This document shows, one piece after another, positions 3,359 to 32,677 of a stretch of DNA of 35,496 nt. A program made the position numbers and the translations under genes. Where the stretch lies: NCBI RefSeq assembly GCF_004010195.1, contig NC_057719.1:22714252-22749747 (forward strand), in the 5' to 3' direction. The notes beneath the pieces are model-generated. The model saw nothing but the letters and a program-made list of their open reading frames with translations, ran no database searches and was not told the origin of the DNA. The number at the start of each line of letters is the position of its first letter. Within the stretch, counting starts at the first letter, position 1. Origin of the DNA: Chiloscyllium plagiosum. Taxonomy: Eukaryota.

Positions 3359-3371
3359 CCTTATAGAGAAA

Positions 3372-8144: not shown

Positions 8145-8495
8145 GTCCGAAGTCACACAACACCAAGCTATAGTCCAACAGTTTAGTTAAAATCACAAGC
8201 TTTTGGAGCTTGGCACTTTCGTCAAGTGAAGTGAAGTGAAGTGCACACAGGCACAGAATTTATGGGTGGAGCAATCAAGGGCAGAGAGGTCAAAAGATCA
8301 TACAAATGGTGTCAGTGTCGAATAATACGTCTCTGCAGGTGACCAAGAGTGTTGGACAGTGTGAATAAAGTGTCAGTAGCTGAATAACAAGTGAAGTGAT
8401 GACCTACAATCTGATTAAATGAGGCAGAGAGATAATTATAAAAAAATTAAAATCAGGTGGTATTGGAGGCAAACCAAATGACTGGAATAACATGG
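8145..8495 (-). mobile_element. Penelope-like element 3'/pLTR fragment (distinct family) with degenerate hammerhead
   Basis: Minus strand 8195-8228 cac-TTGACGA-aagtgccaagctcc-AAAAgctt-gtg: decayed CTGANGA...GAAA core closed by cac/gtg. Confidence 0.5.
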
Positions 8496-8627
8496 AACAC
8501 AAACAGAAGCTGCTGGAACAGCTCAGCAGGTCTGGCAGCATCTCTGCAGAGAAACCAGAGGAGGGATCACCGGACCCAAAACGTTAACTCTAATTTTTCT
8601 TCACAGATGCCACCAGACCCACTGAGT
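8496..8627. mobile_element. Fold-back pair of Penelope-like pLTR fragments
   Basis: CTCAGCAGGTCTGGCAGCATCT ... AGATGCCACCAGACCCACTGAG inverted; central GGACCCAAAACGTTAAC is the 3' half of a decayed hammerhead. Confidence 0.7.
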
Positions 8628-9255
8628 CATACCCTCCCCTCCACCTCGCCCCCCCACCCCAGCAACCCCTGCCCTTGCTCTGTTAATTTGCATCTTTTTA
8701 TTAATTGATAAGCAGTTAAAAGGTGAATTGCTATTCAGTAGCCAACAAGGTTAACATGCGAAAGTAAGGTAATACATGCCAGTAACTCTAAATGAAGACT
8801 TAGCAACATAATATATTTATGTACATGTTTGCACAATTACAATGTTCTCCATCCTGCTGCTTCTATGTGATGCAACATTTATTGCTGGAGTGGCAATAGA
8901 AGTAGGTAAATTAGATCCTTGCTCTGATTGCAATGGTACAATTGGCTGCTGTCTTCTAAACTTTGAAAATAGGGAGGACTCGGCCAGGCAGACTGAGAAT
9001 TTGTCATCTTTTAACTACTGCTGGCCATGTGAAGGCCTTTGCTTGGAGCAAATACATGAATTAGAATTGGCAAAGTAAAAATGCAAGAACTTCACAATGA
9101 TGCCAATGATTTTACTTTACTGACTGCTGCGATTGAGTCAGCATGGCTAAATGTTTTATAATATGGGATTCAATTTTATTTAATTCTGTCAACAGGTATC
9201 TGCAGAACGCCTGTTTCCCTGTGCATTTTTGTTGACTAGAGAATGCTGAAACATC

Positions 9256-9575
9256 ATGATGATTAGGGGTTTAGATAGGGTTGACCGTGAGAACCTTTTT
9301 CCACGTATGGAGTCAGCTATTACGAGAGGACATAGCTTTAAATTAAGGGGTGGTAGGTATAGGACAGATGTTCGGGGTAGGTTCTTTACTCAGCGAGTCG
9401 TGAGTTCATGGAATGCCCTGCCAGTAGCAGTGGTGGACTCTCCCTCTTTATGGGCATTTAAGCGGGCATTGGATAGGCATATGGAGGATAGTAGGTTAGT
9501 GTAGGTTAGGTGGGCTTGGATCGGCGCAACATCGAGGGCCAAAGGGCCTGTGTTCTTCTATGTTCTATGTTCTAT
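9256..9575 (+). mobile_element. 5'-truncated CR1 LINE
   Basis: ORF 9256-9504 TRGHSFKL...FFTQRVVSSWN; (CTATGTT)n tail. Confidence 0.92.
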
Positions 9576-9708
9576 CAATAATCTCCTGCATGTCTTCCTC
9601 TCTAGTTTTTAACTTGGAAATCTGGGAAAGACCAGCTTGAATTCTTTCCCTTTGCCATGGGTTTTTCCTGCATTAGTGGAAAGAATGTACCCATGAGTGA
9701 TTGCAGAG

Positions 9709-10225
9709 GCATAGAGTCATAGAGATGTACAGCATGGAAACAGACCCTTCCATCCAACCTGACCATGCTGATCAGATATCCCAACCCAATCTAGCCAGCA
9801 CTTGGCCCATAGCTCTCCAAACACTTCCTATTCATATACCCATCCAAATGCCTCTTAAATGTTGCAATTGTAACCCATCACCTCCTCTGGCAGCTCATTC
9901 CATACACATACCACCCTCTGTGTGAAAACGTTGCCCCTTAGATCTCTTTTATATCTTTCCACTCTCACCCTAAACCTATGCCCTCTAGTTCTAGACTCCC
10001 TGACCCCAGGAAAAGACTTTGCCTATTTACCCTATCCATGCCCCTCATAATTTTGTAAACCTCTATAAGGTCGCCCCTCAGCCTCCGACACTCCAGGGAA
10101 AAGAGCCCCAAACTGTTCAGACTCTCCCTATAGTTCAAATCCTCCAACCCTGGCAACATCCTTGTAAATCTTTTCTGAAACCTTTCGATAGGAAGGAGAC
10201 CAGAATTGTACACAATATTCCAACA
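9709..10225 (-). mobile_element. 5'-truncated CR1/HER1 LINE
   Basis: ORF 9965-10213 FTRMLPGLEDLNY...RRLRGDLIEVYKIM; reverse-complement (CTCTATGA)n tail at about 9709-9726. Confidence 0.95.
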
Positions 10226-10244
10226 ATGAATTTGCTTGGGTGAA

Positions 10245-10355
10245 GGGCTGTTATGGTACAGTGGTGGTGTACCTGCCTCTCAGCCAAGAGTCCTGTGTTC
10301 AAATCCTACCTGTTTCAGAGGTAGGTCATAGAACTGTGGACAGGTTGATTAAAAT
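10245..10355 (+). mobile_element. Short tRNA-derived SINE head
   Basis: A-box-like TGGTACAGTGG and B-box GTTCAAATCC at pol III spacing; no cloverleaf. Confidence 0.55.
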
Positions 10356-10574
10356 ATCTTGATAAGGGTAACTAAGTAGGGAAGGTATCACATTGCTTAA
10401 TGATGAAGATGATTACAGTGCTGGATGGACAAAGGAGGAGGTGAGGATGTGTACAGAAAAAATGGATAGCTATGTTTGTATCACAAGTTGTTGTGAGGAA
10501 TGGTGTCGTGGAGCAAACTTGTTTAGACTTATCGGGAAAAGTGTGATATGTATAGCACCTATTAGGTAAATGTA

Positions 10575-10800
10575 TAACTGTACTCAAGCCTTCCTGAGTT
10601 GGCAAGGTCATTAAAGCACTTCCTGAGTTGATGGCAGGAATCTGGTTCAATGTCCTTGCTGCTAACAGTTACCTTTAGCCAGACTGCCTTTGCGACATTA
10701 GCAGGTATCTTCCACTCACTGGTGGGGGAGGGTTCTCTCTCTAGGTCCTCACATTCTGCCTGCAGGACATCAAGTGAGGCATCTTTGAAGCAGAATAGAC
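10575..10800 (-). mobile_element. Myb/SANT-like (trihelix) coding remnant, probably PIF/Harbinger-derived
   Basis: FKDASLDVL...AKAVWLKVTVSSK...HQLRKCFNDLANSGR fits the F-S-x-x-E-L-x-V-L...W-x-x-V...Q-C-R-K-x-F-N-D-L pattern of Harbinger DNA-binding proteins (recognised from memory). Confidence 0.55.
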
Positions 10801-10914
10801 CTAATGTATCAATTTTCACCAATTGCTGATACTGCACAAGACCTTTCAACACATCCAAATTTCAGTTTTGTCTTAATCCTTCACTCAAGTTGAGATTGTC
10901 ACATAATTCAGCAC

Positions 10915-11008
10915 ACTCCTGATGAAGGTCTTATGCCTGAAACGTCGACTTTTCTGCCCCTCAGATGCTGCCTGACCTGCTGTGCTTTTCTAGCGCCACA
11001 CTCTGGAC
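10915..11008 (+). mobile_element. Solo Penelope-like pLTR mini-insert with hammerhead motif, 11-bp TSD
   Basis: TAATTCAGCAC at 10904-10914 and 11009-11019; CTGATGA-A-GGTC-TTAT-GCCT-GAAA-CGTC starting at 10919. Confidence 0.88.
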
Positions 11009-11069
11009 TAATTCAGCACCACGTCAAGTTTCAATGAAGAATGTAAGAAAGGATGCAAGTGCTTCGCAA

Positions 11070-11745
11070 GAAGTTTCTGGGTGTTCTTGCACATGAAACA
11101 CAAAGTGTTAGTATGGGGAGATGCAGCAAGTCATTGAGAAGGCCTTTGGTGCTAGTTGTTTTAAAAGGAGGATATTTTGTTATTTCTGTGCAGAGTGTTG
11201 TTCGGACTGCATTCTGTTTTGCTCCCTGTGTTTAAGGATGAACTGCCATTGGAAGCTGTTCAAAAGGGACACATTTGGGCTGATTGCTGGGATGAAGAGG
11301 TTGACTTGCCAAACATGACAAAACAGATTAGGCCTTTATTCATCCAAGTTGAGAAGAATGGGCAGTGATCTTACTGAAACATACACAATTCTGACAGAGT
11401 AGGTATTGAACAGATATTTCCCCCGGTGGGGTAGCCTCAAACTAAAGGGGAATCACTCTGGAATAGGTGACAATCATTTAAAACTGAGATCCAGAGGAAT
11501 TTCATCTCCCAGAGTCTAGCGAATATCTGGAATTGTCCACTCCAGAGAGCTATGGAAACCAGATCACTGACATATTTAAAGTAGAGGTAGAGAGATTTTG
11601 AAATATCATGGAATTAGGGGTAATGTAGATTGGCTTGAAAGAGGAGTTGAAGTGTGGAGCAGATCAGCCATAATCTAGTTGAATGGTGGGGCAGTCTTGA
11701 GGGGCTGAATGGTCTATTCCTGCATTTATTTCTGACATTCCAATG
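11070..11745 (+). mobile_element. Old diverged CR1 3' fragment
   Basis: Degenerate ORF2 C-terminus (GVLAHETQ, QQVIEKA, LEAVQK) and the CR1 3' motif GAGGGGCTGAATGGTCTATTCCTG. Confidence 0.7.
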
Positions 11746-11749
11746 CTTT

Positions 11750-12200
11750 TTCTCACCGTCCCCTGTCGCCTCTGTGCTCCCTTGCTTTTCCCCTTTCCAT
11801 TAATTCTTCCCTGCTGCCCACCTCACTGCTGTTGTTCCTTCTGAGACATTTCCCCTCTTAGCTATTTCCCCCTCTCAGCCACTCCCAATTTCTGTTACTT
11901 CCCTCTCTGCTACTTCCCTCCTTGCTGTCCCACTCCCTACTACTCTGTCCCACTGCTGCTCCCTTCTCTGTCAGCCCCAATCACTCTCCTGTCTGCCACC
12001 CGCCTCTTATATCTTCTCTTTCTACCACTTCTCTCCCTACCACTGTGTTCTCTGCTGCCCCTATCACTTCCCTCTCTGCTACTGCTCTCTCTACTGCTCC
12101 CCTGCCACTTCCCTTCTGTGCCACCTCCTTTCATTCCTGTGTTACAGGCTGTCTGCTGTTACCTCTTTGCTGCCCCTCCCCTCTCTGCTGCATCCCTGTT
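11750..12200. repeat. CT-rich low-complexity tract
   Basis: Strong pyrimidine skew with recurrent CTCTCTGCT/CACTTCCCT motifs. Confidence 0.8.
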
Positions 12201-12436: not shown

Positions 12437-13251
12437 AACTATACCAGCAATATGTAGAAATCAGCCTCCCGGCACAAATATTCTCAGTTAACCTCCTGCA
12501 GGTTTTTTAGAAAGTTCGTCAAGAGGAGAAGAGTCCTTCCAGAGGACTGGCAAAGGAGGCCATGCCACTAAATCACACCAATCTGGTCAGTGAGTGCCAT
12601 TTTGGTCAGTATCAAGTTCAGGGTAAAAAGGACTGCACTACACCAACCTTGTATCTCTTGAACTCAACCCTCCAAGAACCAGCCTGTCCCCCCAAGTAAA
12701 TTGCATCCTCAACTTCCCCAGACGAGAGTGTTGAGGTATCAGAGGGATCACTGTCAGACTGCCTCCTGGACAGCCCAGCAGCATGAAGGATGACATTTTG
12801 GTGAGGTTCATATGTGTGAACAGGATCGTACGCTGCTGAGTTTCACACAGCGACAGCTTTGCAGGTAGGTGAGGGAGAAACATTCCAGTTTTGAGTCAGG
12901 AGACTGAGGGGGTGACTGGTGTTCCCACCTCCATCAGCCTACACCCTCTAACTGATGGATGTGCAAACAAAGAGGATCAACTCAACTCTGGCAAGAAGAC
13001 CCCGAATATATTTGGCCCATGCAAACCCAAACACTTTGAATGTCAACTTTCTGAACCTCCACGGCCAACAAACTCCATTATAGAGGAGGCTCCCTTTACT
13101 CCATGTGCAGAGCAGGAGGGAAGGGTAGACAAATATGTCTCATGGTACTTAGAAGCCACAGCTAACAATGTTATGTAAATAGATTGTGTTCTTGAGAATT
13201 TTATTTACGTAGTTTCTTCCTTTTTTCATGAACTATTCCTTTTTCACTGTT

Positions 13252-13621: not shown

Positions 13622-16600
13622 GCAGATCTCTGGCAAATCCCTTTTCTCCAGACTGACCCTACTAGAGACAAAGGACTAATTGTGACACATTCTGTGGAAC
13701 ACAGAGACATAGACCTCTTGAGCATAGCTATCCTGACTGTCCCTGACTGAAGCCCAGGACTGGTATGAGACACTGCCCAGCACTAACTGTGCTGCTCACC
13801 CCAGTCTGGCAAATGCTCTTGTGGGCTTCACTATGGCCTACTCTTTGAAGTGTTCCAGACATGTTTCACCGCTCGTTGTGAATGTCATATATTTGACACG
13901 GAAATTGCTGTTGGACTGGAGTGGCACACTGACGCATGACAAAGCGTAGGTGCTATTGTATGTGGGCTTCCGCACAGCATGGCCACCCGCCTGGTATGTG
14001 ACTGTGTCAATTGCCATGGCAAAACATGGCAGGGCAAGGCAAAGCATGCATGCAGTGGGCATGCTGCTCACAGGTGAATGTACAATGAGATAGCAAGACA
14101 GCAGCCCCGTTTGGCAGCCAGATCCATGCCCGGGCATGGCTGCTTGTCCCTGTATGGTAACTATACCCGACGCAGCTGTATACTTCTGGTTGTTAGCATG
14201 CCCTGCTAGACAAGTCTGCCCTCACAGGGGACACTATCATTATGCTGGAGGATGCCAGGATGTTGGCGACAGCTTCCTGAAAATCAGTTGGCAATGTCTA
14301 TGGTAGAAGGGTTACCCACGGCTGGTACTTGTGGATCGTGCCTTGCTGTGCAGTTTGGCTATGGAAATATGGAGGTCATTTGGAACAGGTTGTGATTTGA
14401 ATACATAAAGAACTCATTTTGGTTTCCATGTTGACTTCACCTTGGAATCATTCAATTTCAAAGTACATTTGAAATAAACTTTTAGGAGGATGCCTAAAAA
14501 TGAAAAATAGAAAGCATTTTTTTTCTGTAAATGAACTCATCCACAAGAAAATGGCCATTGAATCGAAAATGTCAGCAGCATATCAGTACTAAGATGATAA
14601 TCGAAAATAAAGAACACTATCAAGCACAATAAATAAAACAGCAATGCCAAGCGATGCCATTTAACTGAGATAATGGTTTAGTTTTGTCAATTTTTGCTAA
14701 TTTTAATTCTAATTTCCTCAGTTTTAAACAGAGAAATATTTATGATTGCGTCTTGTCAGAGATCAATTGATATAGTGCAATAAATTGAAAGTGAAATAAT
14801 GTTGAATGTAAATGCAGAACTATATTGTACAGTCTGTTGGCAAAGCTGTGATTCCATGTGAATATGGAGGAGGAACAATGTTTCCTTTTCTCTGTTCTTC
14901 ATACAATTCTGGATGTTTAGTTTTGCTTTTGGTACACATTTTCTTCGTGCCAAATGACAAGACAATACAGATTTTGCAATCAAAAATCAAACAACTGTTG
15001 TTTCACATCACAGTTGTAAACATTTGCACATTTTTTTTTCCTGTAGTTGGTTTCTTCTTCATTGCCTCCTCTCAGCTTTGAATTATTGTGTTCTCATTTT
15101 TGATCTTCCGAACCCTTATGGTCCACACATCTATTCTGCTCGACATATCTCTGCATGGGTTAGGAACAACATTTTTAAGGCATGCGTTTTATTCGGAACT
15201 CTGAGCAGCAATTAACCTGCAGGTCTAATCTTGTGGAGGAAAACGACAAGGCAAATTGATGCCTGCATTCTTCAAAGATTCAACTGTTGTTCATGATTAT
15301 GAGAGTATGAATTTGCTCCCTGTGCTTGATTAATTAAGCCTGGGTGTTGACACAGCGAAAAGTAAACAGAAAGAAAGAAATGGAAATGGCTTTAAGAATG
15401 GAATAGATAATTTAAAGCAATGTATAAAAGTTTGTAAATAAAGTTCCTTCAAATGAACATAATCTCTGTCTTGCTTTCTTGAAAACAAATATAAAATGCA
15501 TAAATCAGTGCCCGTACCTCATTTAGATTCACCACTGGTGCCCAGGAATTGAATCTAATTTTGGAGTTATTGCCTCAGAGAACCCAGGTGAATAAAAAAA
15601 AGTGTATTAAAAGATATGTTGTAATCAATTTATTAAAATGTTTTAATGTACTGATTTAAAGAAATTGGAGATAGGGAAAGGGATGGACATGACTGGTGGT
15701 GGATGAAGATTACGTGATAAAATGTCTAGGAATATGATAAAGCAGAATTGGTAACCCTAGTCTAAATCAATTAGAATAAGTAATCAGCCTGCACTCCTCA
15801 TGTCATTGATTGAGAGCTCTCCTAAAGGTGAAGGGACAGAAATTGTGTACCTCTAGCACAACTTAGAGGTGGCCTGGGCATCTTAAAGGAGTGACACTCT
15901 TCAGTTTCATTTAACTTGAGGGATTAAATACGGGCGGAACCTATGAATCTAAAAGCAGAAACTGGTGATGGAACCCAGATTTTCAGACTCCATTTTGGAG
16001 GCTTGATTTTTGAGGAGCTCAGCGAGAACTTTGAAGCTCTGTAGCTGGCCACAGTGAAAAGACATGGCAGAAATGTTCGATGCCATTAAATAGACTAATC
16101 AGGTCTTCTAAGATGAGAGTCACAAATATCATCTCCGTTCCTTGCTGCTAATCCCCGACAAATCCTGAAACCCAATTTTCAACTGTTGCTCTACCACTTT
16201 CTTTCATTGTCCTCTAACATGGTTGCATAGAAGATTATGTTTTTCTTATATTGTGTGCAATTTTGGTCTCCTTCCTATCGGAATGATGTTGTGAAACTTG
16301 AGAGGGTTCAGAAAGGATTTACAGGGATGTTGCCAGGTTTGGAGGGTTTGAGCTGGAGGGAGAGGTTGAATAGGCTGGGGCTGTTTTCCCTAGAGCGTCG
16401 GAGGCTGAGGGGTGACCTAATAGAGGTTTATAAAATCACGAGGAGCATGGATATGGTAAATAGACAAAGTCTTTTCCCTGGGATGGGGGAATCCAGAACA
16501 AGAGGGTATAGGTTTAGGATGAGAGGGGAAAGATGTAAAAGAGACCTAACGGGCAACATTTTCATGCAAAGGGTGGTGCATGTATAGAATGAGCTGCCAG

Positions 16601-16716
16601 AGGAAGTGGTGGAGGCTGGTGCAATTGCAACATTTAAAAGGCATGTGGATAGGTGTATGAATAGGAAGGGTTCTGAGGAATATGGGCCGGGTGATGGCAG
16701 GTTGGACTAGATTAGA

Positions 16717-17048: not shown

Positions 17049-17371
17049 TGGTGGGTGGCATGGTGGAACAGTGGTTAGCACTGCTGCCTCACAGCGCCAG
17101 AGACCCAGGTTCAATTCCAGCCTCAGGCGACTGACTGTGTGGAGTTTGCACATTCTCCCCATGTCTCCATGGGTTTCCTCCAGGTGCTCTGGTTTCCTCC
17201 CACAGTCCAAAAAAAAAGTGCAGATTAGGTGACTTGACCATGCTAAATTGTCCGTAGTGTTAGGGGCAGGGGTAAATGTAGGGGAATGGGTCTGGATGGG
17301 TTGCGCTTCAGCAGATCGGTGTGGACTTGTTGGGCCGAAGGGCCTGTTTCCACACAGTAAGTAATCTAATC
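17049..17371 (+). mobile_element. HE1-type SINE, full length, nested in CR1 3' UTR
   Basis: A-box TGGAACAGTGGTTAG, B-box GGTTCAATTCC, conserved central domain, CR1-like 3' end, TAATC tail. Confidence 0.92.
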
Positions 17372-18261
17372 AATTGGACTGAAGGGTCTGTTTCCATGCT
17401 GTACATCTCTATGAGTCTATGACTCTATCTGTTTGCACAGCCTCCACCTCCACTTATTGTCTCTCACTTCACCCAATCTGTGCCTTTGTAACATTCTTTT
17501 TTCTCCTCCATTGAGGTCATTGAAGATATCTTATTTTAGGAAGTCATAGCATAAAATCAGCACTAACCATATAAGACAGATCATCACATTGTTCTTCACC
17601 ACAATCTGTACAGAGGATGCATTACCAATTTGAATTGTTGAGTAAAAAAGATTACATTTGATACAACTGAAGAATTAATGTCATAGTTTCAGGTGGTGGA
17701 TTCGAAAGTTGTCAGCAATGCCTGCAGCAAGAACATTAGTTTGAAATTTAGATACGGTGTAGCAGAAAAGTGGGAGCCTGATTTACAAGGAAATTGAATA
17801 ATTTCAGAAACTGCTTCGTCGAAGGTTCTGGTATTCCTATCATTATGAGTGAGTGGATTGTTGGAAATGAAACATTAACCCAATTCATTTTCACTTTCAA
17901 TTACTTGCTACAGTCACCTACGGGACATACAGTTTGATATGAAATGATTGTATTTCGTTACCAACCATGTTGTACTTGCAAGACAGTAAATATAATGTCG
18001 AACATTAGTTGTGATTTTGAAATTTGTCAACATTTACTGAATAGTCCCAAATGTGCTAAGAATTACGCTGGTAATTAATGTGAGATCATCAAGTAAACTC
18101 GTAGGGTGTGTACTTACATTTACTGGAGCTAGAAAATGTTGAACTAATTAGCAAGTCTTAGACACTGTATCTCAGTGTCCATAAATAATTAACAATGTTG
18201 TTGTAAGATTGAGTTACTTATCTTCAGAGAAAAGATTCTAACCATCACCAATATACCAGGA

Positions 18262-19800
18262 ACTAAAGCAAAAAAGCCTGGAAAAGCTCAGCAGGTCTGG
18301 CAGCATCTGTGAAACAGAAATCAGAATTAACGTCTCAAGACCTGTGACCCTTTTTCAGAACAAATGGTGGCAAGGAAAAAAATAGCTTCTATGCAGAATT
18401 TAGGATGTGGGCAAGGAAGTAAGGAGTAAACAACAGGTGGAGATAGAATCCAAAGTAAAAGAAGAACTGTTTGACAGATAACGGAGTGGATAATGATCAG
18501 CCTTGGACAATGAATGGCTACTACTGGGGACACTTTGTGGCTAACAATGGGTTGTGTGTAATAGCAGACCACGTGATAACAAGACATGGTATTTGGGGGT
18601 TGAGGTAAGGAAATGGGAAAAAGTGCCTCAAGCCACACAATTGCTGAACTCAAAATTGAGTCTGGAAGGCTGTAGAGTTCCCAAATGGAAAATGAGATGC
18701 TGCACTTTCAGCTTGCACTGAGCTGTGCTGGAGCACTGCAGTAAGCCTGAGACAGATTTTGGCCAGGGAACAGCATGGTATGTTAAAGTGAGACTAAAAA
18801 ACTACAGATGCTGGAATCCAAAGTAGACATATGGGAGACTGGAAGAACACAGCACGCCAGAAAGCATCAGGAAGTGGAGAAATCAACATTTTGGGTATGA
18901 CTCTTCTTCAGGAGTAGATGAGGGGGTAGGGAGAGCTACAGATAAAGAGTGTGTTGAAGTGGCAGACAACTGGAAGCTCAGGGTCTTTTCTGCAGACAGA
19001 GTGGAGGTGCTCTGCGAAGCATTCACCCAAACTACGCTCATATCCCCACTGTAGAGGAGATTACATTGTGACCGGCAAATGCAGTAGACTAAATTGAGTG
19101 AAGGAGGAGTGGACAAGGCTATCCCAGACGAAAACATCCTTGTGGAAGCCTGACAAGGAAGATGAAAGGAATATGTGTCTGGTGGTGGCATCCCACTGGA
19201 GGTATTGGAAATAGGGAGCAATGATCCTTTGGATGTGGATGTTGTTGGGATGGTAGGTGAGGATAAGGGGGAACCCTATTACTATTTTGGGAAAGAAGAA
19301 AGGGGGTAAGTGTTGGAGTGCGGGAGATGGAACAAACCTAACTGAGGGTCCTGTTAATTACATTGCTGGGAAATCCTCAGTTGAGGAAGAAGATGGATAT
19401 TTTAGAAGCCCCCTTATTGACATTGGCTTCATCAGAACAGATGTGATAGAGATGGAGGAATTGGGAGAATGGAATAGAGTCTTTACAGGAAGTGGGATGT
19501 GATCAAGGTAACTAGGAATCAGTGGGTTTGTAGTGGATATTGGTGGCCAGCCTATCCTCAGATATGGAATCAAAGATAATGAGGAAGAAAAGGGAGAAGT
19601 CAGAAATAGACCACACGATTGTGACAGCAGGGTAGAAATTGGAAGTGAAATTGATAAACTTATCCAATTCTGGATAGGAGAGGGAAATAGCACCAATATC
19701 ATCAATACACCAGAGAAAGCGTTGTGTGTGGGGATTGGAATAGGACTGGAACAAGGAATGTTTCAAGTACCCTACAAAGGGACAGGCATAACTGGGGCCC
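18262..19800 (-). mobile_element. Decayed Penelope-like retroelement: RT C-terminal part, GIY-YIG endonuclease and 3' pLTR
   Basis: GPSYACPFVGY...FLWCIDD (RT YxDD equivalent), IHYKPTDS, NLVYCICRSQCNLLYSG (GIY-YIG), QHLIFHLGTLQP; decayed hammerhead at about 18327-18360. Confidence 0.88.
18791..18948 (-). mobile_element. pLTR insert of another Penelope-like family inside the GIY-YIG region
   Basis: Decayed hammerhead CTGAAGA-agagtcataccc-AAAATgtt (minus, about 18882-18915); degenerate TSD GTATGTTAAAGTG 18778-18790 / GTGTGTTGAAGTG 18949-18961. Confidence 0.7.
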
Positions 19801-20599: not shown

Positions 20600-20827
20600 T
20601 TAGATTAGATTAGATTACTTACAGTGTGGAAACAGGCACTTCAGCCCAACAAGTCCACACTGACCCATCGAAGTGCAACCCACCCAGACCCATTCCCCTA
20701 CGTTTACCGCTTCACCTAACGCTACGGGCAATTTATCATGGCCAATTCACTTAACCTGTTTGGACTGTGGGAGGAAACCCACGCAAACACGGGGAGAATG
20801 TGCAAACTCCACACAGTCAGTCGCCTG
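20600..20827 (-). mobile_element. HE1-type SINE, 5' truncated
   Basis: (TAGAT)n reverse tail; body is the reverse complement of the 3' two-thirds of the copy at 17049-17371. Confidence 0.92.
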
Positions 20828-21228
20828 CAAGAATTCACCATTTGTCTGGAATAACATTCCCTGGGGTTCCCTTGGATCATTGACTGGAGTAATGAGGGAC
20901 ATCTCATCAAAATTCAGGTCCAATTTTGAGGATCAATGTCCTGCACCCAAGGGTACTTAAAAACGCCTGATTTGAACTTGGGTTGATTAATTTTTCAGAA
21001 GTACAGGCAGGAGCCTACAACAGGTGCTGTGTTCCATGCACAAGTCAATGATGGGGGTCTAATGCCTGATTTATTTTGTCTCACAACAATTAGATGTCTG
21101 GTGTCAGGATGTTTCAAGGGCAGCTGAAACATCTTCTGTGGTGAAGGAATTCATTTTTCCCAGCTTCACAAGACACTGGGTGAGTTGTTGCTGTTTATGA
21201 GCAGTCCCACTCACTCTGTTGACTTGCA

Positions 21229-21255: not shown

Positions 21256-21772
21256 TTACTTCATGGCTGCCTGATGTAAACTGTAGAAGGTCAAATTCCC
21301 TATGGAGTGGCAATGGGACTAGCAGTCCAAACGCATTATTTATCCTGATTTAGCCATGCAATGCTACTGCATTACTACCTTTGTGTCAAATCTATTAGTG
21401 AGACTTCATACGTCTGTTGTCTCTCAAGGTCATTAGTTGAGGAGCTGCAGAATACAAGCCAGCTTGGTCTCAGATACAATGCTCAGTATGTGAGTGCTGA
21501 TTAAAAAGATTAGAAAGGAACTGAATTGGCTATAACATCTTTTAGCATGGGTGGCAAAAAACAAAGTTACATCTTTCATTCTTGGCCATTATCATTCAGG
21601 AAATGTCTGTTTTTGGACCTGAAAGGAGACATGAATGAGCTTGAGTCTGTGCTCTTTATCCATTGATGCTTTTCCAACTCGATTGTCTGTCAAAGCTTGC
21701 AGTCAAAATTCAGTCATAAGTAATAAGGGACCAGTGGTGACCAGCATCCATGGGATTATACCACAGCAAATA

Positions 21773-22097
21773 GGGCAGCACGGTGGCTCAGTGGTTAGCG
21801 TGGTGCCTCACAGCACCAGAGACCTAGGTTTGATTCCAGCGTCAGGTGACTGTGTGGAGTTTGCACATTCTCCCCGTGTCTGCATGGGTTTTCTCCACGT
21901 GCTCCAATTTCCTCCCACAGTCCAAAGATGTGCAGGTCAGATGAATTGCCCATGCTAAATTGCCCATAGTGTTAGGTGCATTAATCAGGGGGAAAATTAG
22001 GGTAGAGAAATGGGTCTGGTTGCATTACTCTTCAGAGGGTCGGTGTGGACTTGTTGGGCCAAATAGCCTGTTTCCACACAATAGGGAATCTAATCTA
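21773..22097 (+). mobile_element. HE1-type SINE, full length
   Basis: GGTGGCTCAGTGGTTAGC A-box, B-box-like GGTTTGATTCC, central domain, AATCT tail. Confidence 0.92.
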
Positions 22098-22257
22098 AAA
22101 ATGGCCTTATGGTCAGGGGAAAAAACAATGCCACAGAAGATTGTCAAACTTTGCTGAGAATACAAATATACTAATAATATGGGTATTGTTTATAAAACTA
22201 TGTGTTTATAAGAGAATAGAGGTTTCATTTGTTAACATACATTAGGCACAGTTCCAA

Positions 22258-22465
22258 AACGCACACAGAAATTGCTGGAGAATCTCAGCAGGTCTGACAG
22301 TATCTGTGGGAAGAAGAGTTAACGTTTTGAGTCCAGTGACACTTGATTAGAACAGTTCAATATGTTAACTCTGCTTTCTTACACCGATGTTGCCAGACCT
22401 GCTAGGTTCCTCCAGCGATTTCTGGTTTTGTTTCAGGCATCCAGCATCTGTAGCCCTTTGTTTTA
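22258..22465. mobile_element. Fold-back pair of Penelope-like pLTR fragments
   Basis: CAGAAATTGCTGGAG..AGCAGGTCTGACA..AGAGTTAAC inverted against GTTAACTCT..TGCCAGACCTGCT..CTCCAGCGATTTCTG; decayed minus-strand hammerhead next to the centre. Confidence 0.75.
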
Positions 22466-24705: not shown

Positions 24706-24882
24706 CACCTATTGTACTCTATGCTACATTCTCCCCACCCCCATCCTCCTCTAGCTTATCTCTCCACGCTTCAGGCTCTCTGCCTTTATTCCTGATGAAG
24801 GGCTTTTGCCCGAAATGTCGATTTCGCTGCTCCTTGGATGCTGCCTGAACTGCTGTGCTCTTCCAGCACCACTAATCCAGAA
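24706..24882 (+). mobile_element. Penelope-like pLTR insert in CR1 (5' end in gap)
   Basis: pLTR with hammerhead at 24792-24819; CR1 resumes at about 24880. Confidence 0.85.
24792..24819 (+). ncRNA. Minimal type-I hammerhead ribozyme motif
   Basis: CTGATGA-A-GGGC-TTTT-GCCC-GAAA-TGTC. Confidence 0.7.
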
Positions 24883-25286
24883 AAAGACCTTCATTGTCTA
24901 CCGTCTCTAATCCTCTGATCATCTTGTATGTCTCTATCAAATCCCCTTGAAGTCTTCTTCTTGCCAATGAGAACAGGTTCAAGTCTCTCAGCCTTTCCTC
25001 ATAAGACCTTCCCTCCAGACCAGGCAACATCCTGGTAAATCTCCTCTGCACATTTTCCAATGCTTCCACATCATTCCCGAAATCTGGGGACCAGAACTGT
25101 CACAATATTCCAAGTGTGGCCGCACCAGCGTTTTGCATAGTTTCAGCATGATATTGCAGCTCTGGAACTCAATCCCTCTACAAATGAAGAGAGAAAGTGA
25201 GGTCTGCAGATGCTGGAGATCAGAGCTGAAAATGTGTTGCTGGAAAAGCGCAGCAGGTCAGGCAGCATCCAAGGAACAGGAGAATC

Positions 25287-25314
25287 GACGTTTCGGGCAT
25301 AAGCCCTTCTTCAG
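25287..25314 (-). ncRNA. Minimal type-I hammerhead ribozyme motif (intact core)
   Basis: Minus strand CTGAAGA-A-GGGC-TTAT-GCCC-GAAA-CGTC. Confidence 0.78.
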
Positions 25315-25984
25315 GAATGAGGAAAGTGTGTCCAGCAGTGACCTGGGGTGTGCAGTGAGAGAGGGACTCACTGAAATCCTTGTAGAGGGAGGAAGAGAGC
25401 TTCTTCAAGGAAGGCATCCTTGTAAGAGGATTCGCAGTAGGTTAAAATCTTTGAGAGAAAGTGAGGGCTGCAGATGGCCTCCTTCTTCAAGGACCTCAAT
25501 TTCCCGCCAGACGTAGTCGACGATGCCCTCCACCGCATCTCTTCCACTTCCCGCTCCTCGGCCCTTGAGCTCCGCCCCTCCAACCGCCACCAGGACAGAA
25601 CCCCACTGGTCCTCACCTACCACCCCACCAACCTCCATGTACAATGTATCATCCGCCGTCATTTCCGCCACCTCCAAACGGACCCCACCACCAGTGATAT
25701 ATTTCCCTCCCCTCCCCTATCAGCGTTCCGAAAAGACCACTCCCTCCGTGACTCCCTTGTCAGGTCCACACAACCCACCAACCCAACCTCCACTCCTGAC
25801 ACCTTCCCCTGCAACCGCAAGANNNNNNNNNNNNNNNNNNNNNNNNNNNNNNNNNNNNNNNNNNNNNNNNNNNNNNNNNNNNNNNNNNNNNNNNNNNNNN
25901 NNNNNNNNNNNNNNNNNNNNNNNNNNNNNNNNNNNNNNNNNNNNNNNNNNNNNNNNNNNNNNNNNNNNNNNNNNNNNNNNNNNN

Positions 25985-26170
25985 CTCGAACTCAGCACCG
26001 CCTTCCTAACCTGCACTCGAACTCAGCACCGCCTTCCTAACCTGCACTCGAACTCAGCACCGCCTTCCTAACCTGCACTCGAACTCAGCACCGCCTTCCT
26101 AACCTGCACTCGAACTCAGCACCGCCTTCCTAACCTGCACTCGAACTCAGCACCGCCTTCTTACCCTGCA
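25985..26170. repeat. 31-bp tandem repeat, at least 6 copies
   Basis: CTCGAACTCAGCACCGCCTTCCTAACCTGCA starting at 25985, 26016, 26047, 26078, 26109 and 26140 (last copy has 2 mismatches). Confidence 0.95.
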
Positions 26171-26319
26171 ATCATCTTCCTGACCTCTCCGCCCCCACCC
26201 CACTCCGGCCTATCACCCTCACCTTGACCTCCCTCCACCTATCGCATTTCCAAAGCCCCTCCCCCAAGTCCCTCCTCCCTATCTTACATCTTAGCCTGCT
26301 GGACACACTTTCCTCATTC

Positions 26320-26347
26320 CTGAAGAAGGACTTATGCCCGAAACGTC
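26320..26347 (+). ncRNA. Minimal hammerhead motif (one stem II mismatch)
   Basis: CTGAAGA-A-GGAC-TTAT-GCCC-GAAA-CGTC. Confidence 0.7.
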
Positions 26348-26983
26348 GATTCTCCTGTTCCTTGGATGCTGCCTGACCTGCTGCGCTTTTCCAGCAACAC
26401 ATTTTCACCTCTACAAATGAAACCTAACACACCGTATGCCTTCTTAACAGCACTATCCACCTGGGTGGCAACTTTCAGGGATCTATGTACATGGACTCCA
26501 AGATCCCTCTGCACATCCACACCATCAAGAATCTTTCCATTGACCCAGTATTCTGCCTTCCTGTTATTCTTCCCAAAGTGCATCACCTCACATTTAGCTG
26601 CATTGAACTCTATTTGCCACCTCTCAACCCAACTCTACAGTTTATCCAAGTCCTCCTGCAACCTGTAACATTCTTCCACACTGTCCATGATTCCACTGAC
26701 TTTAGTGTCGTCTGCAAATTTACTAGTCCAACCACCTATGCCTGTGTCTAAGTCATTTATAAAAATGACTAACAGCAATGGTCCAAAAACAGATCCTTGT
26801 GGCACACCACTAGTAACCAGACTCCAGGCTGAATATTTTCCATCAACCACCACCCGCTGCCTTCTTTCAGAAAGTCAGTTTCTAATCCAAACTGTTAAAT
26901 CACTCTCAATTCCATGCCTCTGCATTTTCTCCAACAGCCTACCATGTAGAACCTTATCAAAGGCTTTACTGAAGTCCATGCAT

Positions 26984-27072
26984 TCCTGAAGAAGGGCTTA
27001 TGCCTGAAACGTCGATTCTCCTGTTGCCTGGATGCTGCCTGCCCTGCTCCGCTTTTCCAGCAACACATTTTC
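26984..27072 (+). mobile_element. Solo Penelope-like pLTR mini-insert with hammerhead, 11-bp TSD
   Basis: AGTCCATGCAT at 26973-26983 and 27073-27083; CTGAAGA-A-GGGC-TTAT-GCCT-GAAA-CGTC at 26986-27013. Confidence 0.9.
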
Positions 27073-28349
27073 AGTCCATGCATACCACGTCAACTGCCCT
27101 ACCCTTATCTACATGCTTGGTCACCTTCTCAAAAACTCAATGAGGTTTGTGAGACACGACCTGCCCTTGACGAACCTATGTTGACTATCTAAAATGAAAT
27201 TGTTGTTTGCTAGATGATTATAAATCTTATCTCTCATAATCCTTTCCAAAACCTTTCCTACAACAGAAGTAAGGCTCACTGGCCTATAATTACCTGGGTC
27301 ATCTCTACTGCCCTTCTTGAACAAGGGCACAACATTTGCAATCCTCCAGTCCTCTAGTGCCAAACCTGTAGACAATGACGACTCAAATATCAAAGCCAAA
27401 GGCTCTGTTATCTCCTCCCTAGCTTCCCAGAGAATCCTCGGATAAATCCCATCCGGCTCAGGGGACTTGTCTACTTTCATTTCTTCTCGAATTGATAACA
27501 CCTGTTCATAACTAACCTCAATCCTTTCTAGTCTAATATCTCGTACCTCATTCTTCTCCTCTACAATATTTTCCTTTTCCTGAGTGAAAACCGATGAGAA
27601 ATGCTCAATTAGCATCTCTTCAATCTCCACAGGGTCCACACTCAACTTCCCACTTCTGTCTTTGACTGGCCCTATTCCTACCCTAATCATCCTTTTATTC
27701 CTCACATAACCATAGAAAGCTTTAGGGTTCTCCTTTATTCTATTTGCTAAAGACTGCTCATGTCCTCTCTTTGCTCTTCTTAACTCTCACTTTAAACCCT
27801 TCCTAGCTGATCTGTAACTCTCCATCGCCTCATCTGAACCATCTTGCCTCATCAACACATAAGCCTCCTTCTTCTTCGTAACAAGAGATGCAATTTCTGT
27901 TGGAAACCACAGTTCCCCTACCTTATCACTTCCTCCCTGCCTGACAGGGACATAACTATCAAGGACACACAATATCTGTTCCTTAAACCAGCTCCACATT
28001 TCCATTGTCTGCATCTCCTGCATTTTGCTACACCATCCTATGCATCCTAATTCCTGCCGAATCACATTATAATTGCCCTTGCCCCATCGATAAGTCTTGA
28101 CCTGTGGCATGTACCTATCCCTTTCCATCGCTAAACCAAATGTAACTGAATTATGGGCACTCTCTCCAAAGTCCAACTGAACAAATAAAGAGTAAAAAAA
28201 ATGTTAATTCTGAAAACTCAGGGTGGAGCACAACAAACACTAGAATGGAAGGCCAGGAGTGGTGTGGAACAACTGGCAGACTGGAAAGCTGGAGCGGGAC
28301 GTGATGGCTGGCACTCTGACTCATTAACATTGATCTGTTATTGGTGAAG

Positions 28350-28452: not shown

Positions 28453-28637
28453 TTTTTGTTTTGGACTGAGTGGGCACGGAAATGGTAAGCATGTAACTTG
28501 GGAGAGCATAATCTATTTTTCTTGTAATGCAATGATTATCTTTGAGTCATGGCATTAAAAATTGTGACAACTACTTCTGAGCACTGTCTTTAGACCTAAT
28601 CAAGCATTTGATCAATTCAAATCAATTTGTTCGAACT

Positions 28638-28952
28638 GATTCAAGACCAGCTTCTTCACTGCTGTTATTAGACTTTTGAATGGACCACTTTAATGTTCAT
28701 GTTGATATTTCTGTTTCCATGCGATCCCACATTATAAGAAAATCAAGTAATAGCAGTGCCATTTAAACCAATGGGACTGGAATCACGTTATAGCCAATAC
28801 AAGTACAGGAAGTTTGCATTCTACAAATAATGGATCTAAATTCTTCAATCGCATGACAGCCAATTCATACTGAAGAAACGTGTGGAAGACCAGAACTGAC
28901 TGTACCTCGGTACAAGTGACATTAATAAATCAAATCAAATCAAATCAAATCA
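28638..28952 (+). mobile_element. Rex1/Babar-type LINE 3' remnants with (AAATC)n tail
   Basis: FKTSFFTAVIRLLN coding motif at about 28640-28682; CTGTACCTCGGTACAAGTGACA followed by (AAATC)n at about 28900-28952. Confidence 0.55.
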
Positions 28953-29031
28953 ATGTTGATCTAATCAGCTTCTTTCAACTCTGTTCCCGTTATGCTACTA
29001 ACTGTGCAACTTCTTTTCTTGACTTTCTCAG

Positions 29032-30523
29032 CTATCTGCAAGAATAATAGTGGTCATGGTAGGGGATTTTAACTTCCCAAACATAGACTGGGACTGCCAT
29101 AGTGTTAAGGGTTTAGACGGAGAGGAATTTGTTAAGTGTGTAAAAGAAAATTTTCTGATTCAGTATGTGGATGTAGCTACCAGAGAAGATGCAAAACTTG
29201 ACCTACTCTTGGGAAATAGGGCAGGACAAGTGACTTAGGTGTCTTTGTGTGGAGCCGCAGAAAATGGGGGAGATACTAAATGAGTATTTTGCATCAGTAT
29301 TTACTGTGGCAAAGGATATGGAAGATAAAGACTGTAGGGAAATAGATGGTGACACCTCGCAAAAGTCCATATTACCGAGGAGGAAGTGTTGGATGTCTTG
29401 AAACACATAAAGGTAGATAAATCCCCAGGACCTCATCAGGTGTACCCTAGAACTTTGTGGGAAACTAGAGAAGTGATTGCTGGGCCTCTTGTTGAGATAT
29501 TTGTATCATCGATAGTCACAGGTGAGGGTCAGGAAGACTGGAGGTTGGCCAATATGGTGCCACTGTTTAAGAAGGGTGGTAAGGACAAGCCCGGGAACTA
29601 TAGACCAGTGAGCCTGACCTTGGTGGTGGGCAAGTTGCTGGAGGGAATCCTGAGAGACAAGATGTACATGTATTTGGAAAGGCAAGGACTGATTAGGGAT
29701 AGTCAACATGGATTGGTGCGTGGGAAATCATGTATCACAAACTTGATTGCATTTTTTGAAAAAGTAACAAAGAAGATTGATGAGGGCAGAGCAGTAGATG
29801 TGATCTATATGGACTTCAGTAAGGTGTTCGACAAGGTTCCTCATGGGAGACTGGTTAGCAAGATTAGATCTCAGAATACAGGGAGAACTAACCATTTGGA
29901 TACAGAACTGNNNNNNNNNNNNNNNNNNNNNNNNNNNNNNNNNNNNNNNNNNNNNNNNNNNNNNNNNNNNNNNNNNNNNNNNNNNNNNNNNNNNNNNNNN
30001 NNNNNNNNNNNNNNNNNNNNNNNNNNNNNNNNNNNNNNNNNNNNNNNNNNNNNNNNNNNNNNNNNNNNNNNNNNNNNNNNNNNNNNNNNNNNNNNNNNNN
30101 NNNNNNNNNNNNNNNNNNNNNNNNNNNNNNNNNNNNNNNNNNNNNNNNNNNNNNNNNNNNNNNNNNNNNNNNNNNNNNNNNNNNNNNNNNNNNNNTAAAT
30201 AGACAAAGTCTTTTCTCTGTGGTCAGGGAGTCCAGAACTAGAGGGCATAGGTTTAGGGTGAGAGGGGAATGATATAAAAGAGACCTAAGAGGCAACCTTT
30301 TCACACAAGGGTGGTACGTGTATGGAATGAGCTGCCAGAGGAAGTGGTGGAGGCTGGTACAATTGCAACATTTAAAAGGCATTTGGATGGGTATATGAAT
30401 AGGAAAGGTTTGGAGGGATATGGTCCGGGTGCTGGCAGGTTGGGTTGGGATATCTGGTCGGCATGGACTGGTTGGACCGAAGAGTCTGTTTCCATGCTGT
30501 ACATCTGTATGACTCTATGACTC
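29032..30523 (+). mobile_element. CR1/HER1 LINE with internal deletion, spanning an N gap
   Basis: APE piece 29050-29238 (GDFNFPNIDW) joined directly to the RT N-terminal region; ORF 29386-29910; 3' UTR and (CTCTATGA)n tail at 30196-30523. Confidence 0.93.
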
Positions 30524-30624
30524 CCGTGTTGATGATAATGTTAATCATTCTGTGATCAGGTTTTATCTTCCTCTTTTGAATGTACTTTGGTCACTCAATT
30601 TCAGAAAGCTATTAAGCCTTGTAC

Positions 30625-30848
30625 TAGGCGAAACCGAGGACTGCAGATGCTGGGGATTCGAGTCCAGAGTGTGGTGCTAGAAAAGCACAGCAGGTCAAGC
30701 AGCATCCGAGGAGCAGACAAGTTGACGTTTCAGGCAAAAGCCTTTCATCAGGTCATTCCTGATGAAGGGCTGTTGCCCGAAACTTTAATTTTCCTTCTCC
30801 TTGGATGCTGCCTGTCCTGCTGTGCTTTTCTAGCACCACACTCTTGAT
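30625..30848. mobile_element. Fold-back Penelope-like pLTR pair with back-to-back hammerheads
   Basis: Perfect 29-bp inverted repeat at 30666-30694 / 30816-30844; hammerhead cores at 30724-30751 (-) and 30759-30786 (+). Confidence 0.88.
30724..30751 (-). ncRNA. Minimal hammerhead motif
   Basis: Minus strand CTGATGA-A-AGGC-TTTT-GCCT-GAAA-CGTC. Confidence 0.72.
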
Positions 30849-31207
30849 TATTAATTTGTGTACCTCCATCTTCCAGATCCCACCCTAGCTCCAATGTCTT
30901 TTACTTCTTCTAATTCCTGAACATGTTTTCATTGCCAAATTCTGTACTCAACTTTCCCACAAGCCATGTTTGAATTCTTCCAACTTGGTTTCCATTTCTG
31001 CCCTGGTGCCAAAATATTTATTATCAGAGGCACAAATGCTATCCTCGGTTACTCTTCTGCTACAAAGTTTGACATGGTACATCACACCATTCTCTTCTAA
31101 TGCCTATTTCACCTGGATGGAGCTGCGCTCAATGGTGTCTGTTGCTACTTAGACATGATCATAGAGTTACTTGCAATACTTTCACTTAATGATCCTATTG
31201 TCCCTTG

Positions 31208-32415
31208 TACAGAGGAACCTCGATTATCTGAAGGTGATGGGCAGACAGTTTTTTTGTTTGGATAATTGATTATTTGTAAAATTGATTTGACCTTAAACAA
31301 AGGAAGCCATACTGTGCATAATTGTGTTAAAAAGCATATTTACAGAGTTTTTATTTAATTCAATCGCTAAAATTTGTACAAATACTGGATATCACTTAAA
31401 AATTCATGAAATTTTACAAATCAAATCACTTCTTGAGTAAATAAAATTCATTGAGGTGGAGGTCAGTTATTATTTTTTTGAGAAAATATCCAGCTGCTGT
31501 TGCTTGAGGTGCTGCTGTCTCTTTTTTTATCGCAAACAATAACATTTGATGAGGATGCATCAACTTAACGGCATCAACTTTGTCTTGTGCTTCATACCAC
31601 TCCATGAAAAGTCGCAAACTGTCGTTAGCCTCATTAATGGGAACTGGAGGAGGTGTCAGTATCTGATTTTCCTTCCCATCCACGGTGTTCTTTCCTGCTG
31701 TTCTTTCATGACTGCGTTGATTAGCTGATCATTACTGAGTGTCTCTGTTCTGATGTCGCTGTCACAGTTTACCCAAACATCAATCTCAGCCTCTACAAAG
31801 TCTCCTTGTGCCAGCTGTCTGCAGTTCTCAGTGATGTTAGTGGTTAGCCTTTAAGCTGGATGGGTGTCCTTTTCACTGTCATGGCCACCAACATGCAAGC
31901 CATTGAATCAACACTCCATGACTGTTGATGGCTTGATGCGGTCCCAAGATTCAGCAATCACGAACAAAGCGTCCTTGATTGTGAATGCCTTCATAATTTC
32001 CTACACTCCTTTGTCTGCATTGTGTTCACCCAGGACAACATGCAACATGTTACGGCGATGATATGTTTTCATTATTGCGATGATTCCCTGATCGAGCAGC
32101 TGTAACCTTGAACTGGTATTTGGTGGTAAAAACAAACACTTGATAGCTCCGTCTAGCAATTCTAATTGGCTACTTTTCATAGTGCGTGTGCCCATGTTGT
32201 CAACAAGCAGAAGGGCACGTTGCTCGAGTCCAGCACTTGCTAAACGTAATCTGATGGCAGGTACAAAATCTTTCTGAAACCAGGATGAAAAAGTCATCCA
32301 TGCCTTACTTTGTGCTTTGTACTTCCTGGGAAATGAGTTCTTGAAGCAACGTGGATTAGCATAACACCTGATGCAGACAAGTGGTAATTTATGAGTGCCA
32401 GTGGTGTTGACACAA
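31208..32415 (-). mobile_element. pogo/Tigger (TIGD/Jerky-like) DNA transposon, 3' half with decayed DDE transposase
   Basis: TA plus TIR CAGAGGAACCTCGATTATCTGAA at 31210-31232; minus strand GTHKLPL, NPRCFK, AWMT, ALLLVDN, FLPPNTSSRLQLLDQGII. Confidence 0.9.
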
Positions 32416-32418
32416 GGG

Positions 32419-32677
32419 AAAGTTCAAAGTTTGTGAGAAGATTTGTAGCTCGGGTGCTCGTTGCTGTGGTTCTGTTCGCCGAGCTGGAAGTTTTTGTTGC
32501 AAACGTTTCGTCCCCTGTCTAGGTGACATCCTCAGTGCTTGGGAGCCTCCTGTGAAGCGCGTCTGTGGTGTTTCCTCCGGCATTTATAGTGGCCTGTCCC
32601 TGCCGCTTCCGGTTGTCAGTTTCAGCTGTCCGCTGTAGTGGCCGGTATATTGGGTCTAGGTCGATGTGTTTGTTGAT
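32419..32677 (-). mobile_element. Penelope-like (Poseidon-type) 3' fragment with pLTR
   Basis: INKHIDLDPIYRPLQ endonuclease C-terminus; CpG-rich (young); hammerhead at 32499-32538. Confidence 0.8.
32499..32538 (-). ncRNA. Type-I hammerhead ribozyme motif, best-formed copy
   Basis: Minus strand GCA-CTGAGGA-T-GTCaCCT-AGAC-AGGgGAC-GAAA-CGTT-TGC: stem I GCA/TGC, 6-bp stem II with one mismatch, palindromic AACGTT stem III region, GUU triplet. Confidence 0.82.

Follow-up and report, generated by a model that had tools for sequence, protein, structure and literature searches.

Hammerhead motifs of Penelope-like elements in Chiloscyllium plagiosum appear to lie mostly in worn stubs that tend to begin just upstream of the motif, many of them after an extra G

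The minimal hammerhead ribozymes of metazoan Penelope-like elements (PLEs) have been described as type I motifs with the conserved core, an extra base before stem II, a G-C first pair of stem II, a short stem I and a palindromic four-base sequence in place of stem III, and, with several families per genome, they mostly occur singly in truncated elements (Cervera and de la Pena 2014, PMC4209133). Their role has been called unclear (PMC8557442). For the Poseidon element PAc of the lizard Anolis, the reverse transcriptase (RT) was seen to start inside the RNA, with both strands extended and with uncleaved RNA as the main substrate (Frangieh et al. 2024, PMC11167929). Non-LTR retrozymes (LTR, long terminal repeat) are non-coding, Penelope-related sequences with a type I hammerhead, which reach up to 120,000 copies in the axolotl (PMC7229834; bioRxiv 10.64898/2026.07.22.740005). 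Here we analysed a stretch of 35,496 nucleotides from the shark Chiloscyllium plagiosum (NCBI RefSeq assembly GCF_004010195.1, contig NC_057719.1, positions 22,714,252 to 22,749,747, forward strand; referred to as the window), in which a sequence-only reading had reported some 13 such motifs, together with related copies from the rest of the genome.

Four families are represented in the window, by eight copies (A), one copy (B), three copies plus two partners (C) and one copy (D). Family A has a GGGC/GCCC stem II and the palindrome ACGU, family B the palindrome AGCU, family C the palindrome ACGU and an AGUU/AACU stem I, and family D a long stem II and the palindrome ACGU. Positions are counted from C3 of CUGA as +1, which places the predicted cut in family A between +28 and +29. 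Judged from their sequence, the motifs are new members of the known class of minimal PLE hammerheads, mostly in worn copies. The copies are probably neutrally decaying stubs of these four families, of which those of A and B were likely copied from capped, uncleaved RNAs that started with the 5′ strand of the ribozyme.

The ends of the copies were mapped in a genome sample drawn from the 20 largest scaffolds as 120 stretches of 10 kb each (1,155,933 non-N bases), which contained 362 stubs found by their 3′ block. The 5′ ends were read from the 354 of these whose alignment reached +70, with ends at N gaps or reference limits counted as censored (36/209 in A, 8/80 in B). These ends pile up at –10 to +10, and the copies tend to start 4–8 bases before the motif. 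Specifically, family A has 5.0 ends per base per 100 at –10 to –1 and 2.3 at +1 to +10, falling to 0.7 at +11 to +40, 0.57 at the cut site and 0.6 at –40 to –11. Family B is alike, with 5.4 at –10 to –1 (over A and B, 0.6–0.9 at –40 to –11 and about 0.6–0.85 at the cut site), and family C has its peak at –12 to +4 (15/43 copies). Only 46 of 209 A copies and 17 of 80 B copies extend the 40 bases upstream to where a promoter-like motif lies. An inverted copy stands directly upstream in 146 of the 332 A–C copies, and target duplications of 7–16 bases flank 17 of 154 non-inverted copies, as against 1.5 in swapped flanks. Among 23 listed of 30 loci that hold the start of the open reading frame (ORF), nine begin at –4 to +2, four keep the upstream pseudo-LTR (pLTR) and ten begin further in or at a gap. 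An artefact of core-based searching or of missing upstream references was ruled out as the source of the pile-up by the 3′ anchoring, the target duplications, the inverted junctions and RNA loose ends at –4.

The 3′ ends cluster near +86 to +95 and +124 to +128 in family A, and at +81 to +87 and +122 to +124 in family B. These two clusters match the two internal RT starts plus tail of the lizard element, which likewise has two 3′ ends 30–40 bases apart and no RNA ends at the cut site (PMC11167929). Starts of A1 copies at the cut site with a purine before them number 466, about 40 of 100 listed being true junctions by eye. Because so few copies start at the cut site, linear cleaved RNA appears rarely to have been the insertion template.

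What is new here is an extra G before copies that start at the outer edge, in two families. It was counted in genome-wide exact searches, whose patterns carry a leading non-A letter and so lose part of the cases and most intact long copies. The A1 element has a C at –5, and among copies starting at –4 with another base there, G was found in 3,415 of 5,604 (61%; background 26%). Starts one base further in, at –3, are preceded by G in 691 of 5,934 cases (12%), which led us to reject a preference for G-ending targets; starts at –5 number 1,994. An initiator-like YYANWYY with its A at –4 is present in A1, A2, A3 and C. Because family B has its TATA box (TATAAAT at –40) four bases further up than the AT-rich motif at –36 in A and C, its start was predicted at –8 before the search was made, and B copies starting at –8 were indeed preceded by G in 1,690 of 2,197 cases (77%).

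Individual junctions were inspected for 89 A1 copies (from the first 93 of 100 listed); the G preceded 17 of the 29 solo copies and 45 of the 60 inverted ones. Solo A1 copies with a target duplication carry it in 14 of 16 cases; 10 of these G are also in the target, 3 are absent from the other copy of the duplication (and thus untemplated) and 1 is doubtful. All five ORF-bearing copies starting at –4 are preceded by G, as are 16 of 17 inverted copies among 30 B junctions. At one locus (L222/L223) a head-to-head family B pair has both copies starting at –8, a G before each and 2 bases between them. An extra G at full-length L1 junctions has been read as a copied cap (PMC11702581). Our literature search, sharks included, found no description, for pLTRs that bear hammerheads, of a cap G, a hammerhead start site, a poly(A) site or a strong-stop product; the supplements of PMC4209133, PMC11167929 (Fig. 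S2: genomic-copy coverage) and the bioRxiv preprint may bear on novelty.

RNA reads came from an oligo-dT single-cell run (X20), of which about 2% was examined. At an A1 locus (1,794 reads) and a B locus (1,613) they run in both directions, and since 93% and 99% of them, respectively, continue into unlike sequence, the copies are transcribed as passengers in other RNAs. The B locus, whose pLTR is on the minus strand (L245:1570–1590), also showed poly(T) loose ends, 278 reads ending at +59 and 160 at +56 (438/1,613). An AATAAA stands 12–15 bases upstream of these positions and a GU-rich tract follows them, and the element is not A-rich there. In family B the RT start sites are further downstream than this poly(A) site, so that an RNA that ended normally would offer only its 5′ repeat for priming.

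Several observations weigh against copying from a capped start. The X20 reads show no pile of molecule starts or ends anywhere, the cut site included. Solo A1 copies without a detected duplication have the G in only 3 of 13 cases, solo B copies in 4 of 13 (near background), and the partner copy could supply it in 24 of the 45 inverted A1 junctions. Family C has it in 1 of the 5 non-C cases available. Family D lacks a 5′ peak (2/15, the other ends being spread), and no G precedes –18 there; before –23, inspection by eye gave a G in about 4 of 11 cases. The extra G is absent from all 13 window copies and from all of 49 long copies, a comparison of low power in which a mismatch could have been trimmed. 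Finally, the poly(A) signal present in 59 of 80 B copies is rare in the other families (A 18/209, C 0/43, D 3/22).

An RT that stalled before a folded or protein-bound ribozyme on a longer RNA, added a non-templated C and left its product to be joined by microhomology might also cause ends to accumulate at the 5′ edge. The missing RNA start in the X20 reads would suit such stalling, as would the microhomology at many junctions and the roughly one fifth of copies that extend past –40. However, the edge, at –4 in A and at –8 in B, shifts in step with the TATA box rather than with stem I, which has 3–4 bases in both families; the G is position-specific (61% versus 12%); and the edge is sharp upstream and tails downstream, like a run-off end. 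We consider stalling improbable. Stubs also outnumber ORF-bearing copies (362 stubs, versus 17 of the 120 sampled stretches with RT or thumb coding), as they would if they came from separate short, non-autonomous masters whose RNA starts with a templated G. Yet the ORF-bearing copies are preceded by the same G (5/5), such a G would have to have arisen at the initiator position in two families, and no long copy has it, so that such masters seem scarcely credible.

Whether the motifs are maintained was examined on copies found by the 3′ block and reaching upstream of C3, at non-CpG core positions. Family A deviates by 4.0% in the core versus a flank median of 3.5% (mean 6.1%; 115 copies), and family B by 6.8% versus 8.0% (mean 10.8%; 50 copies), with all core positions intact in 78/115 and 22/50 copies. 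CpG sites deviate in 12–44%, so that the G.U "wobble" earlier noted in stem II (GGGC/GCCT) is better read as CpG decay; pair 9–20, a CpG site, is G-C in 84 and G-T in 21 of the 115 A copies. Covariation within families was accordingly rejected, the variation of stem II being largely CpG decay. Between families the picture differs. With family states read from 3′-anchored majorities (a representative table picked with a stem-II-requiring descriptor was set aside), the core CUGANGA...GAAA...UH is the majority state in all four families. The extra base before stem II is A or U, the commonest first pair is G-C in A, B, C, D1 and D2/3, and the palindrome stands in place of stem III (ACGU in A, C and D, AGCU in B) in a 3′-anchored search that did not require it. 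Stem I has C-G/U-A/A-U at pair 1, U-A/A-U/C-G at pair 2 and C-G/G-C/U-A at pair 3 (U.U in A); stem II has G-C/U-A at pair 2, G-C/A-U/C-G/U.G at pair 3 and C-G/G-C/U-A/A-U at pair 4 (A.G in D1). This comparison covers four families only and carries no formal statistic. Cofolding did not return the hammerhead dimer fold, the energy models not scoring the core.

The proposal that stem II varies but keeps pairing, and that the core is conserved, thus holds between families, where double changes occur, but not within them, where cores decay like flanks. Because pairing is kept between families while copy cores decay like flanks, selection would have acted on the masters and not on the copies. Since the cores decay like flanks and the "wobble" is CpG decay, the motifs of the window and of the genome are best regarded as fossil stubs rather than as a selected ribozyme population; the functional population originally envisaged is not borne out, given that copies decay neutrally and few reach the promoter-like motif. 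A block downstream of the cut site, at +45 to +75 from C3 and common to A and C stubs, is as conserved as the core and resembles a branch point plus 3′ splice site, or a protein-binding site.

In the model proposed in PMC4209133, hammerheads cut the transcript as dimers, and insertions are templated by circles formed when the resulting pieces are ligated; the genomic motifs would then be working ribozymes. Because core, stem I, stem II and palindrome are all kept between four families, catalysis or pairing was presumably selected in the masters, as that model would have it; the copies are also transcribed, and a ligated circle without an end would leave no mark at the cut site, which applies to long or tandem copies. 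Against this stand the flank-like decay of the copy cores, the rarity of linear cleaved templates, a dominant end that lies upstream of the core and carries the extra G, reads that are those of passengers, and the low in vitro rates and inactive monomers reported in the same paper. Taken together, circles as the usual template strike us as unlikely.

Copying from capped, uncleaved RNA would probably proceed as follows. The TATA-like box and initiator of the pLTR would start an RNA polymerase II transcript at –4 (A) or –8 (B), the first base of the ribozyme. The RT-endonuclease would nick the target and start copying inside the RNA at either end of the tail of the 5′ repeat, as the lizard element does in vitro, and the RT would run off the capped end after 95–135 bases, copying the cap as a C that would often pair with a target G. 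The short cDNA would then be joined to the target, often by 1–4 bases of microhomology including the cap-derived C, and two cDNAs primed from both nicked strands would yield head-to-head pairs. To make longer copies, either the RNA would have to be a read-through or circular one or the RT would have to jump to the 3′ repeat; the strand jump finds no support, because no G was carried into the 49 long copies. Stubs without the promoter-like region would subsequently decay. The ribozyme would act on the master transcript and not on the stubs, its cut removing the capped first 32–37 bases and an upstream AUG; alternatively, its palindrome might serve to pair two repeats.

In LTR retrotransposons and retroviruses, minus-strand strong-stop DNA arises by internal priming near the 5′ end of the RNA. 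The course outlined above would work like this in its internal priming near the 5′ end and its run-off at the cap, and family B has the order TATA box, start, poly(A) site, priming site, ORF. It would be unlike it in that the primer is nicked target DNA and not a tRNA, that a GIY-YIG endonuclease and no integrase is involved, and that the short cDNA is itself inserted; no search was made for a tRNA primer site. A more general, target-primed retroviral-like scheme is possible, although we would not favour it outright: the pLTR would be the equivalent of U3-R-U5 with the hammerhead as R at the capped start, the roughly one million stubs would be inserted strong-stop cDNAs, and the ribozyme would be a self-decapping switch or an end-pairing device for strand transfer, not a processor of the insertion template.

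The layout differs from those described elsewhere. Stem I appears here to be the very start of the RNA, without loop 1, unlike in the minimal hammerheads of PMC4209133. The RNA used for PAc began 126 bases before the ORF, and no natural start or cap appears to be reported for it (PMC11167929); in families A–C the ORF begins only after the ribozyme (in B immediately behind the tail) and not inside it. The PAc template has a TATA-like box at –45, from which a lizard start about 14 bases before C3, with an extra G in genomic copies, would be predicted. The layout is different again in Drosophila Penelope, whose transcript begins 46 bases upstream of an intron of 75 bases (PMC2377424) that ends directly at helix I (PMC4209133).

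Within the window itself, motifs were scored with a descriptor (CUGANGA-N, stem II of at least 3 pairs, GAAA, 2–6 nt, UH) and a strict descriptor that adds a stem I of at least 2 pairs and the palindrome. The window has 8 descriptor matches versus a mean of 0.255 (maximum 3) in 200 dinucleotide shuffles, and 5 strict matches versus 0; in the genome sample there were 124 descriptor matches (3–14 in five shuffles) and 63 strict ones (0 in shuffles). Chance motifs were rejected on these grounds. All eight cores of the earlier report are present, with C3 at 10919 (+), 24792 (+), 25314 (–), 26320 (+), 26986 (+), 30751 (–), 30759 (+) and 32535 (–), minus-strand coordinates having previously been given at the low end. 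Alignment to copies of these families at other genomic sites confirmed five decayed cores as homologues, with C3 near 8225 (–), 8556 (+), 18357 (–), 18911 (–) and 22350 (–), and added two partner copies without a core (8496–8560, minus; 22362–22450, plus). The CUGANGA...GAAA...UH core is intact in 8 of the 13 copies, but core, stem II, palindrome and stem I are all kept in only three (25314, 26986 and 32535): stem II is mismatched at 10919 and 26320, the palindrome is broken at 24792, stem I at 30751 and the triplet at 30759. An Rfam search of the window (E up to 10) reported no hammerhead family and 8 weak unrelated matches, and the suspicion of under-annotation therefore holds for Rfam. The features are as follows.

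8150..8228 (–): family B (AGCU palindrome) pLTR stub whose core has decayed, with changes at C3 (near 8225) and in GAAA
8496..8560 (–): coreless stub of family C, paired in inverted orientation with 8556..8623
8556..8623 (+): family C stub with decayed core
10904–10914 / 11009–11019: 11-bp target duplication of stub 10915..11008
10915..11008 (+): solo stub of family A (C3 10919) that begins at –4; its core is intact, with a single mismatch in stem II
18261..18411 (–): family C pLTR with decayed core near 18357, downstream of an endonuclease-coding remnant
18640..19799 (–): broken Penelope-like ORF pieces (tblastn with family proteins), namely RT 19392–19799, thumb 19097–19619 and GIY-YIG parts 19021–19101 and 18640–18753
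18801..18913 (–): A-like stub with C3 at 18911, in which both GAAA and the palindrome have decayed
22257..22353 (–): stub of family C whose core, near 22350, has decayed
22362..22450 (+): coreless stub of family C, an inverted partner copy
24732..24882 (+): family A2 pLTR that retains upstream sequence, with C3 at 24792 and a broken palindrome (AUGU)
25175–25188 / 26408–26421: 14-bp target duplication flanking unit 25191–26412
25191..25338 (–): family A1 inverted pLTR with tail, C3 25314, hammerhead sequence fully intact; left arm of unit 25191–26412
25345–25478 (–) and 25471–25821 (+): scrambled ORF pieces of that unit, the ORF start region and the RT thumb plus Cys linker, respectively
26140..26412 (+): family A1 direct pLTR, C3 26320, one stem II mismatch, short 3′ end
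26973–26983 / 27073–27083: 11-bp target duplication of stub 26981..27074
26981..27074 (+): family A1 solo stub inside the ORF of a long interspersed nuclear element (LINE), C3 26986, intact with a G.U closing pair
30627..30752 (–): tailed stub of family A with C3 at 30751 and a broken stem I, arranged head to head with 30754..30844
30754..30844 (+): stub of family A with C3 at 30759, in which both the palindrome and the triplet are broken
32425..32692 (–): family D (Poseidon-type) 3′ end with TATA-like box and intact hammerhead sequence, C3 32535
32626–32676 (–): endonuclease C-terminus within the family D 3′ end

The solo stubs at 10919 and 26986 are about 94 bases long each and have 11-bp duplications, and unit 25191–26412 combines inverted repeats, scrambled ORF pieces and a 14-bp duplication. 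At 25985–26170 a 31-base piece of the family A1 3′ region stands in six tandem copies adjoining an assembly gap, which may be an assembly artefact.

The attribution to pLTRs of several Penelope-like families stands, as RT/GIY-YIG coding adjoins the motifs and the stems and palindrome are kept in four families. In the window, tblastn with family proteins found Penelope-type coding upstream of copies of A, C and D. At other loci, longer fragments have a YIDD RT motif, a Cys linker and GIY-like motifs, with GIY-YIG (PF01541, E 6.8e-5) above cut-off in one of six and weak in one, and RVT_1 below cut-off in two; a Pfam search of five Penelope fragments from the window returned no family. A PDB search with one fragment gave a single, unrelated match and was disregarded. 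Family B is linked to PLEs by an ORF directly after the tail in 2 of 20 loci, as well as by RT motifs at one locus and a weak match to the thumb (E 6e-5). The elements thus show RT followed by a C-terminal GIY-YIG upstream of the pLTR, as in endonuclease-bearing PLEs (with weak Pfam scores, one above cut-off), together with an inverted 5′ copy, an optional tail of 30–40 bases and target duplications, an architecture that fits PLEs as described in PMC8557442 and PMC3846280. The Cys linker (CX2-5CxxC), a feature of the Neptune clade, is present in family A proteins and was not seen in the single D frame examined. We provisionally take families A–C to be Neptune-like and D to be Poseidon-type, labels that we base on this linker motif.

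The expectation of a very large motif population was upheld. A tight family A pattern has 60,247 exact matches in the 3.56 Gb genome (control 0), and the sample densities of about 101 (descriptor), 55 (strict) and 313 (stubs) per Mb extrapolate from the largest scaffolds to roughly 350,000, 190,000 and 1.1 million genome-wide, so that some 190,000–350,000 core-intact motifs compare with about 2,000–9,000 minimal motifs per genome in PMC4209133. The window is ordinary in this respect (362 copies in the 1.156 Mb sample, 313 per Mb), and family B alone has about 70 copies per Mb. Non-LTR retrozymes reach the same order of magnitude, but they form tandem arrays with classically canonical hammerheads and circular RNAs (PMC7229834 and the bioRxiv preprint), whereas the present stubs are dispersed, solo or head to head, and have minimal cores. 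No tandem head-to-tail hammerhead units were found in the window, its copies being either dispersed or arranged head to head; no search was made for such arrays in the rest of the genome.

The window holds further repeats. LINE fragments with tandem short-repeat tails, presumably of the CR1 type, lie at 1–1712, 2750–3340, 4100–4710, 16230–16710, 24900–28170, 29020–30520 and elsewhere (RVT_1 matches), the copy at 24900–28170 containing two Penelope insertions. Four copies of a short interspersed nuclear element, which we assume to be tRNA-like, share their 3′ end with the LINEs (7100–7380, 17050–17370, 20600–20830 and 21770–22095). A DDE_1 transposase remnant at 31500–32423 (minus strand, E 8e-27) is truncated by the family D insertion, and 32690–35496 (minus strand) is a broken LTR-retrotransposon pol fragment (RVT_1, E 1e-24; integrase-like frames by eye) with a 133-base direct duplication at 34634–34903. 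A non-repeat open frame of 74 codons at 12618–12842 (minus strand) has a protein-like composition and is possibly a host exon.

For annotation, these results mean that motif counts overstate active ribozymes. The reading of the stubs as run-off products at the cap would explain why ribozyme motifs outnumber coding copies and why they stand head to head. Thousands of junctions fix, to a single base in each family, where the elements' natural template has its 5′ end, with a cap-like G, and this record supplies exact constructs for cleavage and reverse-transcription tests, in which cleavage is predicted to remove the cap. Moreover, family B copies supply poly(A) sites to cellular RNAs and may end many host RNAs.

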